Origin: a virus | Reading direction: 5' to 3' (one strand) | Virus genome (UHGV): UHGV-1355554 | Length of the DNA stretch: 41,630 nucleotides | Shown here: in pieces, positions 4,611-19,338 of the stretch | Numbering within the stretch: position 1 is the stretch's first letter | Layout: the number at the start of each line of letters is the position of its first letter | Program-made: the position numbers and the translations under genes | Notes under the pieces: model-generated | Database searches by the model: none | Seen by the model: only the letters and a program-made list of their open reading frames with translations | Told to the model about the DNA's origin: nothing

Positions 4611-4662
4611 CCTCCTTTTTATCTTATGAACTAAGTATATCATGATAAAAAAGAAAGTCAAC
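4611..4662 (-). promoter_or_regulatory. Early promoter-leader cassette (TTGACT-16/17-TATACT plus TAGTTCATAAGATAAAAAGGAGG)
   Basis: Same architecture and leader as the cassettes at 7861-7913, 36541-36592 and 37290-37338. Confidence 0.45.
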
Positions 4663-4690
4663 AGATAATGTCAACTTTCTTTCAAAATCA

Positions 4691-4909
4691 TTAAACTTTT
4701 TCTGAGGTCGTAATTGAAACAATGTTATTCACGGTTAGAAGTACCTCGTATTTATATGTTCCCATTCCAATTAAGTCTTTTTTGTGTTGAATATAGATTG
4801 TTTCTTCTCCTAACTCTATTGCACGTTTAAATAGAGTAATCAGCTCTCTATCCGTTTCTACCACAAAGGGTTCTGTTGAATTAGTTGTGTAAATCAAATA
4901 TTTTTTCAT
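4691..4909 (-). CDS. Hypothetical protein (72 aa)
   Basis: ORF whose stop overlaps the start of the next gene. Confidence 0.45.
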   Translation of the reverse strand: MKKYLIYTTNSTEPFVVETDRELITLFKRAIELGEETIYIQHKKDLIGMGTYKYEVLLTVNNIVSITTSEKV

Positions 4910-6501
4910 TATTTTTCCTCCACGTCATTGAAAATATTTACATACTCTGTCCCTGCTAGTGCATTCATTAAATATGGTCTGATTGACTCATTGTCTCCGT
5001 TACGTGCAATTTTTAGACCAGTTAGTACGCGGGCTTTACTTGTCCGTTTTTCTTCAAAGCCTTGTTTGAGTAATAGCTCTTTCATTGTACGCCAGTTCAT
5101 TGATTTATTAATATTATTCTCTTTCGTGTACACGTTAAAGATATTCTTCAATAGTGTTAGATTAACAGTTCCTTCTTCATCTTCTACAATAACAGGTACT
5201 TCACTCAAAAACTCTTTAGATGGATCGTTTGATTCAATGTAAGCTTTCTTGAAGGCAATCATATCTTCTGTTTCTGTGAATGGGTTTTCACCATTTGTGC
5301 CTGCGTCTAAAATCTTTTTGAATTGTTGAATGCAGAACCATGCAAATTTACCTAGTTGCTCTTTTGACTCACGTTCTTCACGTTGTTTGTTGAACTCATT
5401 GATTCGTTCACGTGCTTCTGGTGTGTCAAGATTGGTATTAAAGTTTAGAATCAGAATACGTCTATACCATCCATTTGTGCGGTCGTTAAATGCAGGTAGT
5501 TCATTCATTGAGAACATTAACTTAGCATAGTTGGTGAAACTGAAAGCGTCTTTACCTTTTTTCTCAGCGTGAACAGCGTCAAGACCTCCTGAAAGTTTTT
5601 TCAGTGTTTCCGTACCTTTTACAAAGTTGGCACTTGAATCCGCTTCAAAGTTTAGTAATTTATGGTGCAATGAAGCTTTGTCAAAACGATTGTTTTTATC
5701 TGCTAAGCTGTCTAGTCCAACTGCTGAGCTATTTTTGAAACCAATCAATTTGTTCATGATAAATCCACCTACATATGATTTACCATTTGATCCATTACCC
5801 AACAGATATAAGATAGATTGATATTTGTATTCTCTATAATACATGTAACCAATGTATTCATATAATGTCTGCGCTTGGTCTTTTAATAGATAGTCAATCC
5901 ATTGTTTGGCTAGTAGTTCGTCTGTCTCATCTGTTTTAATTAAAGGATATGGGAGTTGAAGTGTGTGGTAATCTTCTAATTTGGTTTCTCTGATATCATT
6001 TGTTTTAAAGTCATATGTGCCATTCTCAAAAGCAATAATATTTGGGTTAGGGTTGTCACCTAGTGGGGCATGCTCACCACGTGTCATGGAGCGATTAGCC
6101 AACTCAGGAGCTAATTTCTTCATTTCTTTACGTATCTCATTCCCAAACTCTGGATTTCTGAATTGTGGTGTGAATTTTGGCGCTAAAATATTTTCAAAGT
6201 ACCAATCAGAATATTTGTAACTACCTAGATTAATTTCAGCCCAAATGCGTGTGTCAGCGTTGTATACATATGGCGCGTTTAAATTAGGATGAGCGTACAC
6301 ATAAGCTAGTTGGTTAAATTTTTCAATAAATAATTCCTGTTGAATCTCAAATTTTGGCTGTGTACCGTCTTTACCACCGTAGTACATTCTTCCTACTTCT
6401 GAATTGAAGTCTACAAACTCCTCACTTGGAAAGTTTTTGTTTGACACTGGTAGTAATTCCTCAACTGGTGCTGAGTAATCTATTTTCGTTAGTTCATTCA
6501 T
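4909..6501 (-). CDS. D5-like primase C-terminal / SF3 helicase (phage-plasmid P4 primase type)
   Basis: Walker A LLGNGSNGKSY and Walker B region FSMNELP. Start taken at the internal ATG 6501 (MNELTKIDY...) preceded by AAGGGGGAA. The track's 6579 start would cover the gene's own promoter. Confidence 0.75.
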   Translation of the reverse strand: MNELTKIDYSAPVEELLPVSNKNFPSEEFVDFNSEVGRMYYGGKDGTQPKFEIQQELFIEKFNQLAYVYAHPNLNAPYVYNADTRIWAEINLGSYKYSDWYFENILAPKFTPQFRNPEFGNEIRKEMKKLAPELANRSMTRGEHAPLGDNPNPNIIAFENGTYDFKTNDIRETKLEDYHTLQLPYPLIKTDETDELLAKQWIDYLLKDQAQTLYEYIGYMYYREYKYQSILYLLGNGSNGKSYVGGFIMNKLIGFKNSSAVGLDSLADKNNRFDKASLHHKLLNFEADSSANFVKGTETLKKLSGGLDAVHAEKKGKDAFSFTNYAKLMFSMNELPAFNDRTNGWYRRILILNFNTNLDTPEARERINEFNKQREERESKEQLGKFAWFCIQQFKKILDAGTNGENPFTETEDMIAFKKAYIESNDPSKEFLSEVPVIVEDEEGTVNLTLLKNIFNVYTKENNINKSMNWRTMKELLLKQGFEEKRTSKARVLTGLKIARNGDNESIRPYLMNALAGTEYVNIFNDVEEK

Positions 6502-15780: not shown

Positions 15781-17013
15781 TTGAATCGTGAAGAGCAAAT
15801 CAACAAGGCACATGATTTATTGTCAGATGGCAAATTTGAAGAAGCACGTAGTTTAGTTGAAGCCATTAAAAAACAAGACGCAGAAGAGTTAGAAAAAAAA
15901 GCTTCTGACAAAAAGCCTGACGAAGATAAAAACGTTGAAGAAACAAAAGATGAAGAAAAAGAAGAACCAAAAGAGCAAGAACCAGAAAAAAAAGAAGAAA
16001 AAGAACCAGAAAAAAAAGAAGAAAAAGAACCAGAGAAAAAACAAAAAGATGAAGAAAAACGCTCATTAGAGCAAAAAGGAGAAGAAAAAAATATGGAAAA
16101 AGTAGTGTTAGATGGAAAAGAAATCTCTCAACCAGAAACAGAAGTTCGTGGATTTTTAAATTATGTACGTTCTCATAACCCTAAAATGGACTTGCGAGCG
16201 CTTCCAGAAGGTGTAAAATCAACGGATGTGGGTGCTATTATCCCTCAAGATATTGTCACAAAAACAAAAATGTTACCTGAAACAGTTGTGGATTTACGAA
16301 ATCTAGTTCAAACAGTGAAAGTAAGCACACCTACAGGTAAATACCCTATTTTGAAATCAACAGAAGCAGTAATGCACACTGTTGAAGAACTTGAAGCAAA
16401 TCCAGACTTGGACAAACCACAATTTGACAATGTATTATATGATGTTGATACTTATCGTGGACAAATTCCAGTTTCTCGTGAATCTTTAGACGATTCAGAT
16501 GAAGATTTAGGCGCTTTAATTGCACGTCATATTCAGCGCATTGCATTGAATACAGCCAACTCTAAAATTGTTGAAAACTTGAAAACAGCAACACCTAAAA
16601 CTGTTAAGAATTTGGATGAAATCAAAGCAATCATCAATACTGAGTTTGACCCAGCATACAACTTACAGTTTATTGTATCTCAATCATTCTACAATGAAGT
16701 AGACTTAATGAAAGACAATGAAGGACGTTACCTGTTACAACCTTCAATCACTGCTCAATCAGGAAAATCTCTACTTGGTTTGAATGTGACTGTACTATCT
16801 GATAAATTGCTAGGCGGTTCAGCAGGAGCTAAAGTAGCATTCTTAGGTGATCCAGCTGGATTTACATCATTCTTTGACCGTAACGAAATGGCAGTCCGTT
16901 GGCAAGAACATCAACATTATGGTGAAATTCTAGCAGCAGCAATGCGTTTTGACGTTAAAAAAGTAGACGCAGCAGCTGGTAAATTCTTAACTCTTGCGCC
17001 AGCGGTAAAGTAA
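15781..17013 (+). CDS. Major capsid protein (HK97 fold) with an N-terminal KE-rich delta/scaffold domain; TTG start
   Basis: No separate scaffold gene. Roughly the first 110 aa are Lys/Glu-rich with a tandem EPEKKEEK repeat. The C-terminal 300 aa are HK97 MCP-like. Confidence 0.85.
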   Translation: MNREEQINKAHDLLSDGKFEEARSLVEAIKKQDAEELEKKASDKKPDEDKNVEETKDEEKEEPKEQEPEKKEEKEPEKKEEKEPEKKQKDEEKRSLEQKGEEKNMEKVVLDGKEISQPETEVRGFLNYVRSHNPKMDLRALPEGVKSTDVGAIIPQDIVTKTKMLPETVVDLRNLVQTVKVSTPTGKYPILKSTEAVMHTVEELEANPDLDKPQFDNVLYDVDTYRGQIPVSRESLDDSDEDLGALIARHIQRIALNTANSKIVENLKTATPKTVKNLDEIKAIINTEFDPAYNLQFIVSQSFYNEVDLMKDNEGRYLLQPSITAQSGKSLLGLNVTVLSDKLLGGSAGAKVAFLGDPAGFTSFFDRNEMAVRWQEHQHYGEILAAAMRFDVKKVDAAAGKFLTLAPAVK

Positions 17014-17082
17014 CAACGCCTAGTAACGTAGCAACTCAAGACGTTACTGCAACAGGCGTTACTATCACAGCAGTGTAACATT

Positions 17083-17120
17083 AGGTGAGTGAAGCGATTA
17101 TGCTCACTCACCTTTTTATT
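17083..17120 (+). terminator. Rho-independent terminator after the capsid gene
   Basis: 10-bp stem AGGTGAGTGA/TCACTCACCT followed by T5. Confidence 0.55.
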
Positions 17121-17146
17121 ATAAAATAGAAAAGGAGAGTTGTCAA

Positions 17147-17323
17147 ATGACACGTACATTCAAAGTATATAACGGAGAACAAGTAATCAAAGAAGGAGCT
17201 TCACCGTTAGCAATCACTGATTTAACAGCATCAACACAATATAATTTGAAGATTTCAGCGGTTGAAGACGGTAAAGAGTCAGCAAAAGTAGATGTTCCAG
17301 AATTTACAACATTAGCAGAATAG
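17147..17323 (+). CDS. 58-aa protein encoding the C-terminal half of an FN3/Ig-like domain
   Basis: RBS AAAAGGAGAG. FKVYNGEQVIKEGASPLAITDLTASTQYNLKISAVEDGKESAKV matches the C'-G strands of FN3/Big domains. Confidence 0.45.
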   Translation: MTRTFKVYNGEQVIKEGASPLAITDLTASTQYNLKISAVEDGKESAKVDVPEFTTLAE

Positions 17324-17344
17324 GAAGGGGTTACCCCCTTCTTT
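17324..17344 (+). terminator. Short GC hairpin GAAGGGG-ttac-CCCCTTC with a weak U-tract
   Basis: Read directly. Confidence 0.35.
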
Positions 17345-17358
17345 AAGGAGGTTAGATA

Positions 17359-17628
17359 ATGTTAACAGTAGCAGAAATTAAAAATAATTTGCGTATTGAC
17401 TATGATGAGGATGACGCCTACCTAGAAATGTTACTTGGAGCAGCACAACTCTACATTTTAGGTAGTATTGAAGTAACCGTATTACCAGATGACCCAAAAA
17501 CAAATACCCTAATATTCATGCTTGTATCCTTATGGTATGAAAATCGTGTGCCAGCAACTAACGCAATGCAACAACAAGTACCATTCACTATTACAGCAAT
17601 GATTCATCAATTGAGGGGTGTTGTATAA
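17359..17628 (+). CDS. Head-tail connector / DNA-packaging protein (gp6-like)
   Basis: 89 aa, MLTVAEIKNNLRIDYDEDDAYLEMLL.... Position after the capsid gene. Confidence 0.65.
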   Translation: MLTVAEIKNNLRIDYDEDDAYLEMLLGAAQLYILGSIEVTVLPDDPKTNTLIFMLVSLWYENRVPATNAMQQQVPFTITAMIHQLRGVV

Positions 17629-17963
17629 TGGCAAACATCAAGACATCAAAGTTGAATCAGCGGATTACACTACTAGTGAAAACGCGTTCACGAAATGAGT
17701 ACTTTGAGTGGATTGAAACATGGAATCCAGATAGAAAAATATGGTGTTCCGTCAAACAGCAGTACTTTAAAGACTATCAAGACACGTATGGAACAACGCT
17801 AGCTAATACAACAAACTTTATTATTAGATACGACACAGGACAACTGGTTTCAAAGTCTAATCGTATTGAATTCAAAGGTAAGCAATATAGAATAGAGGAC
17901 ATTCTGGAAGGTTCATTTGATAGAGACTTCACTACATTAGTATGCAAACAAGTGGAGGACTAA
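17628..17963 (+). CDS. Head closure / head-tail joining protein
   Basis: Size and synteny. Confidence 0.45.
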   Translation: MANIKTSKLNQRITLLVKTRSRNEYFEWIETWNPDRKIWCSVKQQYFKDYQDTYGTTLANTTNFIIRYDTGQLVSKSNRIEFKGKQYRIEDILEGSFDRDFTTLVCKQVED

Positions 17964-18762: not shown

Positions 18763-19338
18763 GTGATTATTATCGCTTTAATCGGATTTGAAAAAGCCAT
18801 TATCTCTGTGCCAAAAGTAAGCGGAGAAGGCGTAGACCAGTTAGTAATTGATAAAACAGGTGGAGGTACAATTGAAGCAAGTATCTCAGGAATTTCACCA
18901 GACCAAACAACCGTATATGCGTCAAATGTACCTATTTGGGTATCAGCAAAAGGTGTTGGTGAGTTAACAGCCTCATTAAACGTGTTTGACCTTTATAAAA
19001 ACAACGTTTACGAGCGTGTTATGGGTATCACTCGTGACGAAGATGGTGTAGCAATGGTTGGACAAGATACAGAAGCACCGTATGTGTCAGTAGTATTTGT
19101 ATCAAGCACCGCAGATGGTAAGAAGATGTTCCTTGGTTTGACAAAAGGACGTTTCTCACATCCAGAATTAGCCTTGAACACATCAGAAGCTGGTGGAACA
19201 GAACCAAATACAGAAACAATTGAAGGTTCATTTGTAACGGACTCACGTGGTATTGCATACATGAGTGGTGTGGAAGATGGTTCTAAGTTAACACTAGACA
19301 AATTCATCAACAAAGTTAACAACGTATCAGCAGGTTAA
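18763..19338 (+). CDS. Major tail protein (GTG start)
   Basis: 191 aa, highly expressed-type position. TGTGCTATAAT promoter at 18725. Strong terminator downstream. Confidence 0.7.
   Translation: MIIIALIGFEKAIISVPKVSGEGVDQLVIDKTGGGTIEASISGISPDQTTVYASNVPIWVSAKGVGELTASLNVFDLYKNNVYERVMGITRDEDGVAMVGQDTEAPYVSVVFVSSTADGKKMFLGLTKGRFSHPELALNTSEAGGTEPNTETIEGSFVTDSRGIAYMSGVEDGSKLTLDKFINKVNNVSAG

Follow-up and report, generated by a model that had tools for sequence, protein, structure and literature searches.

A fibronectin type III domain split between a putative capsid extension and a small downstream protein: a candidate tag-and-catcher module in an Enterococcus faecium phage

The 41,630 nucleotide viral genome UHGV-1355554 (the whole of which is referred to here as the window) is of the Enterococcus faecium siphophage type and carries, between its major capsid gene and its head-tail adaptor gene, a small module composed of two parts. 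The first is a tag of 22 codons, which is open in the -1 frame behind the capsid gene; the second is a separate open reading frame (ORF), ORF58, which encodes 58 residues and is referred to as the catcher. Profile, model and alignment evidence supports the view that these pieces are two parts of one fibronectin type III (FN3) domain with the break in the B-C loop, strands A and B being encoded by the tag and strands C, C', E, F and G by ORF58. The seven FN3 strands are not found in one polypeptide, as a stop codon, a terminator and a ribosome-binding site (RBS) intervene. Our preferred interpretation, which we hold to be probable while leaving appreciable room for doubt, is that this naturally split FN3 domain acts as a non-covalent tag-and-catcher attachment device.

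The tag and ORF58 as parts of one FN3 domain

Positions 16600-17700 share 93% DNA identity with Enterococcus phage dArtagnan and 92% with IME-EFm5, and the capsid ORF matches Pfam Phage_capsid (E 2.1e-28) as well as PHROG 10, the major head protein (E 4e-64). The open stretch of the -1 frame runs from 16983 to 17078, overlaps the final 10 capsid codons and reads ILNSCASGKVTTPSNVATQDVTATGVTITAV up to its stop; read on from the last capsid codons it gives ...GKVTTPSNVATQDVTATGVTITAV and ends at 17078. Strands A and B are encoded by 17010-17075, in the -1 frame relative to the capsid gene, and the capsid extension amounts to 22 residues and two strands, not to a complete Ig-like domain. A hidden Markov model (HMM) of the tag, trained on 7 tags of annotated phages, scored 35.5 bits at 17010-17078, the sole such site in the window. 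The tail-tube gene of the window (18763-19338) was untagged according to the same HMM, and the window contains one tag and one catcher.

The ORF58 protein (MTRTFKVYNGEQVIKEGASPLAITDLTASTQYNLKISAVEDGKESAKVDVPEFTTLAE) when searched alone against Pfam fn3 (PF00041) scored 17.3 bits (E 0.006, profile positions 51-82), the curated threshold of this family being 25 bits. Joining the tag directly to ORF58 raised the score to 19.4 bits, and joining them through an invented six-residue B-C loop gave 27.0 bits over profile positions 2-81. A family profile built from the 15 closest homologues (A1) matched fibronectin FN3 chains in the PDB with an E value of 6.5e-11, which is summed over repeats, and single FN3 domains at 1.3e-4 (1x5x) and 2.5e-4 (2n1k). 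The AF2 model of ORF58 alone (pLDDT 90.3) comprises strands C, C', F and G together with a partnerless E-strand segment. When this model was used as a Foldseek query against the PDB, nearly all of the 50 matches listed were FN3 or FN3-like (probability up to 1.00, TMq 0.42-0.74), with domain 2 of Tuc2009 BppA as the top match (5e7t_B; 32% identity, rmsd 2.5, TMq 0.68). The FN3 similarity exceeds chance, and ORF58 is predicted to have the FN3 beta-sandwich fold with strands C to G only.

Comparison by eye with human 10Fn3 showed that the tag PSNVATQDVTATGVTITAV matches PRDLEVVAATPTSLLISWD, which constitutes strands A and B, and that ORF58 spans the stretch YRITYGE...ISINYRT, from strand C to strand G. 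A profile of 17 joined tag and ORF pairs aligned end to end with 10Fn3 (2ck2), FN3con and Tencon, with the tag in register with the A and B strands of canonical FN3. An earlier note on this DNA, made from the letters alone, had proposed an Ig-like or FN3 domain divided between these two frames. Its coordinates for the capsid stop, the -1 frame and ORF58 were all correct, its translations match the sequence, and the similarity to FN3 is borne out by the PDB profile search, the Foldseek search with the AF2 model and the end-to-end alignment of the joined profile. The same note had estimated that roughly 15 residues are missing between the pieces; this does not hold, as the break falls in the B-C loop and this loop is only 8-9 residues long in contiguous relatives such as P0091, so that almost nothing is missing at the split.

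A precedent for such an assembly is found in the Tuc2009 baseplate. In the crystal structure 5E7T one sheet of BppA domain 2 is completed by a beta-hairpin, which is formed by a C-terminal extension of BppU of 25 residues; the terms "FN3" and "fibronectin" are absent from the passages of the article that describe this contact (Legrand et al., 2016; PMC4742702). BppU ends in ...KVKPPTNLIVSDVTSTSAKISWENGG and BppA in KYRVYLDG...VESDKSESVAFKTTLPK, the latter also read as ...KYRVYLDGTPVGGSKLLSFDLENLKAGTSYNVQVSQINGNVESDKSESVAFKTTLPK, each followed by the stop. Alignment by hhalign of the ORF58 family with the BppA half-domain (BppA 230-286) gave an E value of 6.9e-6 over 53 columns, and hmmsearch gave 0.061, while alignment of the tag family with the BppU tail (BppU 296-321) gave a P value of 1.4e-4 with 41% identity over 22 columns, in register. 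The tag match points to homology with the BppU tail, for which statistical support is modest owing to the shortness of the sequences. Judged by these alignments, both halves are homologous to the BppU hairpin and to the C-G half-domain of BppA, and trans-completion of this fold is therefore an attachment mechanism that has been observed.

Conservation of the split in other phages

The 22 close homologues of ORF58 are all stand-alone proteins of 33-73 amino acids (aa), 21 of them of 58-73 aa and the shortest (P0020) a 33-aa fragment. All 14 homologues that were aligned with ORF58 begin at strand C, and in five of the six PHROG families matched the match begins at profile position 1-3. The same layout, that is an A-B peptide ending in a stop followed by a Shine-Dalgarno (SD) sequence, a start codon and strands C to G, is present in SANTOR1, VEsP-2, the 72-kb phage EH93P1, Brochothrix BtpYZU02, Staphylococcus Clo6 and Staphylococcus phage 187, in Efquatrovirus phages of E. 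faecalis and Twort-like Staphylococcus myophages, and in dozens of IMG/VR and Logan contigs. The 53 IMG/VR loci examined fall into 31 distinct upstream-sequence groups and most, not all, of them have a tag just upstream of the catcher. The lineages which share the break point and a start codon for the second part are deeply diverged, with no detectable DNA similarity. The frame relation of the tag varies, being 0, -1 or +1 with respect to a capsid, tail-tube or other structural gene, with in-frame tags in Clo6, in the tail protein of phage 187 and in L018. The spacer between tag and catcher is equally variable: stop and start nearly abut or overlap in L018, are separated by 9 nt in Brochothrix, and elsewhere lie up to about 70 nt apart with a terminator in between. 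Elsewhere the catcher half-domain forms the N-terminus of larger proteins, followed by Big_2, by an HeH-like motif, by the rest of a 312-aa protein or, as in P0091, P0059 and P0089, by complete FN3 repeats. An exhaustive representative search, which yielded these three proteins, returned 4076 matches, of which the best 150 were mostly giant contiguous FN3 arrays.

Where the tag is out of frame, a recoding motif is found in the correct register at the junction joining it to the upstream gene. Among these motifs are A_AAA_AAG (L014 and L075), C_CCA_AAA (L056), which we take to be the heptamer of phage A2, G_GGA_AAA (L037), G_GGG (L037 and L068-L070), A_AAA_TAA (L023), CCC_TAG (Efquatrovirus) and CCC_TCG_TRA (phage 187, L062 and EH93P1), together with G_GGA_AAG_TAA in Brochothrix BtpYZU02. 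The tag HMM was run on six-frame fragments of 18 independent loci; all matches above about 5.3 bits were on the coding (+) strand and nearly all ended at a stop, with three ending one residue short of it. In one contig (L017, 2890-2985) the tag frame follows G_GGA_AAC at the end of a protein closing in ...VVFGGQGN; the 312-codon open frame upstream differs from the frame leading into the tag, which suggests an additional shift or an assembly error.

Some phages carry a second tag on the other major structural gene, 2-3 kb from the tag that is linked to the catcher. The capsid and tail-tube genes of SANTOR1 share the ending ...CCC_TAG, after which the +1 frame of each reads STPPVVGQVT(TTE/PAD)TSATIELS up to a stop. 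These tags have 81% identity across the 16 C-terminal residues that were compared; for the Ser at their end one copy uses the codon AGT and the other TCG. Behind the SANTOR1 tail-tube tag come a terminator and then a gene labelled "head-tail adaptor" (MIKIT...), not a catcher gene. Second tags are present likewise in phage 187, L023, L037 and the L018 group. In several phages the capsid and tail-tube tags are near-identical and there is one C-G gene only within the stretch examined. The similarity of tag pairs is 0.66 within a genome versus 0.40 between genomes, and none of the 44 derangements reached the observed value. Judged from their sequences, the tags look translated. In the Efquatrovirus contig L016 a 184-aa homing-endonuclease-like ORF (4655-5209) lies between the tail-terminator and tail-tube genes, and the second tag is shifted further downstream than that of SANTOR1 by this insertion.

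Within the lineage of E. faecium phages to which the window belongs the locus is found in three states: a terminator alone (IME-EFm1 type), a whole Big_2 domain read in the -1 frame after an identical GGTAAAGTAACA junction (KEN22 and S_9; E 8e-15), and the tag with ORF58. The tag and ORF58 are present or absent jointly. The Big_2 domains lie at 912-1183 in KEN22 (L003) and 915-1186 in S_9 (L004), and in GenBank each is given as a separate short coding sequence whose internal start would cut the domain short; these are probably mis-annotated frameshift extensions. In the GenBank record of EF36P3 (L002) the 3' end of ORF58 is present in duplicate, along with a stretch of N, at about 1260-1470, which looks like an assembly artefact.

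A number of further features of catcher proteins should be mentioned. In the gene chain of Clo6 (L011, 931-2348) an "Ig-like protein" closes with an in-frame A-B tag and the next ORF has strands C to G first, Big_2 inside and another A-B tag last, followed by a 78-aa ORF; the proteins of L058 and L065 combine an N-terminal catcher with a C-terminal tag. These arrangements suggest non-covalent daisy chains. Small catcher ORFs, among them those of SANTOR1 (L007/L080) and IME-EFm5 (L006), are widely annotated as "major tail protein" or "tail tube protein" (PHROG 341); they encode FN3 half-domains, and their place is between the capsid gene and the adaptor gene. The matching phage records number 660, of which 472 are from Staphylococcus. 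An HeH/SAP-like motif is joined to the head region by three different routes: as C-terminal cargo of an FN3 catcher protein (L018 group; L018, 3001-3309), as a separate gene directly after the capsid gene in Tuc2009 (L067, 8184-8384), and, in phage PSA (L079, 5148-5290), through a +1 shift that extends the capsid protein.

Expression signals and alternative readings

The features of the locus are listed in Table 1, the module being placed between the capsid and adaptor genes. The junction at the capsid end is GTA_AAG_TAA, and among relatives it is conserved as either NNA_AAG_TAA or G_GGG_GAG_TAR; NNA_AAG_TAA is kept in dArtagnan, L071, L073 and L078 and occurs also at the capsid gene end of the unrelated L018 group. 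The Lys-tRNA on the final sense codon could re-pair with AAA at 17007-17009. A stem-loop within the tag begins 6 nt 3' of the AAG of the shift site; in eight distinct relatives 91.7% of its cells are paired and two pairs show compensatory change. Coding constraint confounds this signal and its role as a possible frameshift stimulator is suggestive only. Downstream of the tag, the hairpin of the terminator is composed of 9 bp and 2 bp with one bulge and is followed by UUUUUAUUAU; its folding energy (dG) is -18.7 kcal/mol with a z score of -5.7, and none of 200 shuffled sequences was equally stable. A consensus terminator scan passed over this hairpin on account of its bulge and loop, and it was recovered by folding. 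A post-capsid hairpin with the TTTTATTATA..AAAGGAG cassette is present at the equivalent position in IME-EFm1 and KEN22. The earlier note had read this segment as a 70-nt insert within the domain, an idea which is rejected, since relatives that lack the module have this hairpin and RBS cassette too, as their resident terminator behind the capsid gene.

Table 1. Features of the capsid-adaptor region of UHGV-1355554 (positions within the window).
Feature	Position	Strand	Remarks
Major capsid protein gene, HK97-type, 410 aa	15781..17013	+	stop TAA 17011-17013
Putative -1 shift site A_AAG_UAA	17007..17013	+	AAG is the final sense codon; stop codon in A site
Tag, 22 codons in -1 frame (VTTPSNVATQDVTATGVTITAV), stop TAA 17076-17078	17010..17078	+	predicted FN3 strands A and B
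Stem-loop in tag-coding region, 12 pairs	17017..17058	+	dG -17.7 kcal/mol, z -2.5
Intrinsic terminator	17083..17122	+	hairpin 17083-17113 plus U-tract 17114-17122
SD sequence AAAGGAG of ORF58	17131..17137	+	9 nt to ATG at 17147
ORF58, predicted FN3 half-domain (C, C', E, F, G; "catcher")	17147..17323	+	58 residues, own SD
Second, weaker hairpin past ORF58	17322..17343	+	dG -13.4 kcal/mol, z -1.6; adaptor-gene RBS next
Head-tail adaptor gene	17359..17628	+	Pfam Phage_connect_1 E 3.5e-12

Two observations concern the surroundings of the module. The minus strand of the terminator-ORF58 spacer, which is kept in relatives, contains at 17118-17146 a perfect sigma-70 consensus (TTGACA, 17 nt, TATAAT; 12/12) directed back into the capsid gene. 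It could serve as an antisense promoter, or it could have arisen as a side effect of the AT-rich sequence around the RBS. The N-terminus of the capsid protein (15781-16110) comprises about 100 highly charged residues rich in Lys and Glu with tandem EPEKKEEK units and has the appearance of a scaffolding or delta domain fused to the capsid protein; the capsid ORFs called in related contigs range from 366 to 411 aa.

The tag-and-catcher interpretation would operate as follows. A minority of ribosomes would slip -1 at A_AAG_UAA and produce a capsid protein with a 22-residue C-terminal extension consisting of FN3 strands A and B. The terminator would attenuate transcription, and ORF58, which has an SD and an ATG of its own, would be translated separately and supply strands C, C', E, F and G only. 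By homology with the crystal structure, ORF58 would then dock on the tag by fold complementation and so become part of the virion, where a subset of the capsid subunits would display a complete FN3 domain at the surface, functionally equivalent to the Ig-like domains that other phages fuse to their capsids by frameshifting.

Several observations weigh against this interpretation. No canonical X_XXY_YYZ heptamer is present at the capsid end, where the sequence is G_GTA_AAG and re-pairing is possible for A_AAG alone, while canonical heptamers stand at the corresponding place in L014, L075, L056, L037 and Brochothrix; the earlier note was right in reporting no such heptamer and had passed over the conserved A_AAG followed by a stop codon. 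In IME-EFm5 (L006, 903-914) the capsid end is GCG AGG GAG TAA, versus GCG GGG GAG TAA or NNA AAG TAA in relatives, and both tag and ORF are intact without a plausible -1 re-pairing; either the shift has been lost, another mechanism is used, or there is a sequencing difference. The covariation of the tag stem-loop is thin. A profile of the tag alone found no significant match in the PDB (E 0.45-5), its nine best matches including residues 105-125 of 5e7t_A, a ranking that is suggestive only. The signal of selection on the tag frame is weak, with a pN/pS of 0.69 in nine relatives versus 0.93 and 1.24 in the other frames. Some catcher genes (L058-L060 and L077) have no tag immediately upstream, and we found neither proteomic data for this phage group nor a report in the literature of the extended capsid protein or of ORF58 in virions.

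Some of these points would be accommodated if the module were a relic, in which a contiguous FN3 extension of the capsid, once added by frameshifting, was broken by the terminator and RBS cassette, leaving the tag as an untranslated fossil and ORF58 as a remnant or as a protein that has drifted to an unrelated role. Close relatives do carry a contiguous Big_2 at the same junction, and the missing heptamer, the lack of a slip site in IME-EFm5 and the weak purifying selection on the tag fit such decay. We nevertheless consider this scenario quite improbable: the identical break point with its own start codon recurs in lineages without DNA similarity and in all three frame relations, canonical heptamers precede the tags of other phages, the close homologues of ORF58 are all intact, and the Tuc2009 structure shows the split form to be functional. 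In addition, tag-only copies exist on second structural genes, and for these copies the fossil of an interrupted domain offers no explanation. The earlier note had described the locus as interrupted or as moving towards a separate decoration gene. That the two pieces belong to one FN3 domain and that the upstream piece is placed for -1 addition to the capsid has stood, KEN22 and S_9 using the identical junction for Big_2. The idea of decay or transition has not stood, the split being conserved across diverged phages in three frame relations; an interruption is unsupported because second tags occur without an adjacent C-G gene and because the Tuc2009 halves assemble in trans.

A different possibility is that ORF58 is a real virion or assembly protein, that no frameshift takes place here and the tag is not made, and that ORF58 attaches elsewhere or completes itself by homo-oligomeric strand swapping. 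The catcher genes without an upstream tag, the non-canonical slip site and the AGG_GAG junction of IME-EFm5, which cannot slip, would be expected in this case, and N-terminal strand swapping is possible in FN3 scaffolds (PDB 4m6a is among the fold matches). This scenario appears unlikely given that the tag and ORF58 have been gained and lost jointly in the lineage, that the tag is always exactly 22 codons ending in a stop in nine relatives with a nucleotide divergence of up to about 35%, and that the junction sequence is conserved in its two forms. Finally, the stop right after the last tag codon, the stable hairpin and the SD-like element before translation resumes bear a superficial resemblance to translational bypassing in the style of T4 gene 60, with take-off before the tag stop, the hairpin skipped and landing near the ORF58 start. 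Bypassing was rejected and is in our view scarcely credible: there is no matched pair of take-off and landing codons in frame with ORF58 and no conserved in-frame codon match before the ATG, the take-off codon varies (GTG here; GTC, GAG and AAA in relatives), the gaps are as variable as the spacers described above, each of the downstream ORFs is equipped with an SD and starts at ATG or TTG, and there is nothing downstream of second tags to land on.

Beyond the window, we see about as much reason to accept as to doubt that Firmicute phages possess a general modular system of non-covalent tags and catchers derived from split FN3, in which an A-B tag of about 20 residues on capsid, tail-tube or baseplate proteins, added in frame or by +1 or -1 recoding, would recruit proteins that start (or, in BppA, end) with strands C to G. 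Under the same general proposal one catcher gene would decorate both head and tail, and catcher-tag proteins such as those of Twort-like Staphylococcus phages, L058 and L065 would form daisy chains. Frameshift-added Ig-like domains and the published Tuc2009 hairpin contact are already known. In a literature search that left out most subscription journals we found no description of split FN3 as a recurrent tag/catcher module, of frameshifting that adds a tag only, or of one catcher serving head and tail. If the general proposal is correct, many short "frameshift extensions" and small "major tail protein" ORFs would be parts of the system, and frameshifting at the ends of capsid and tail-tube genes would sometimes add a docking peptide only, with domain and cargo supplied separately. 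It would explain the very short recoded extensions, the orphan N-terminal FN3 half-domains and the mislabelling as "major tail protein", and would provide a natural pair of peptide and half-domain for cargo display on the heads and tails of Gram-positive phages.

Comparison with known systems

The addition of Ig-like domains to capsid and tail proteins by frameshifting is well documented, with phages A2 and T3 and SPP1 gp17.1* as examples, and the direction of the shift varies among these extensions (Fraser et al., 2006; PMC5009743). As proposed for the window, an alternate-frame 3' extension gives a minority of subunits an Ig-like or FN3 module, and the relatives KEN22 and S_9 have this same frameshift arrangement with Big_2; unlike these systems, the extension proposed here consists of only two strands in 22 aa, with the remainder of the domain being a separate gene product. 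In Listeria phage PSA a +1 frameshift at CCC near the 3' ends of the capsid and tail genes produces Cps-L and Tsh-L (PMC5009743), which are annotated with "ribosomal slippage" in the PSA record (NC_003291). PSA resembles the present system in its short head and tail extensions made by shifts near the last codons (compare CCC_TAG of Efquatrovirus), and differs in that Cps carries an HeH-like motif and Tsh a 24-aa acidic tail, neither of which is an FN3 tag. The first 12 kb of PSA were scanned and contained no catcher gene. PSA was rejected as a proven example of the tag system, its extensions being unrelated.

In chaperone-usher pili an incomplete Ig-like fold is completed by a strand from another polypeptide, and this donor-strand complementation results in stable and specific attachment. 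What is missing in those subunits is a single strand (G), and they have no sequence relationship with the present proteins, in which two strands (A and B) would be donated. The engineered split-domain tag SpyTag/SpyCatcher becomes linked through a covalent isopeptide bond, whereas no covalent link is predicted between the tag and ORF58.

With respect to Tuc2009, the tag there is in frame on a baseplate protein, whereas in the window a -1 frameshift would be needed and the carrier is the major capsid protein; and the half-domain is the C-terminus of BppA and not a free-standing 58-aa protein encoded by the gene immediately downstream. By the register used here, the C-terminal hairpin of BppU (PPTNLIVSDVTSTSAKISW, about 25 residues) corresponds to strands A and B and the incomplete sandwich of BppA (YRVYLDG...AFKTT, about 57 residues) to strands C to G, as predicted for the tag and ORF58. 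If the general proposal is correct, the Tuc2009 contact, seen once in a baseplate crystal, would become a modular attachment principle.

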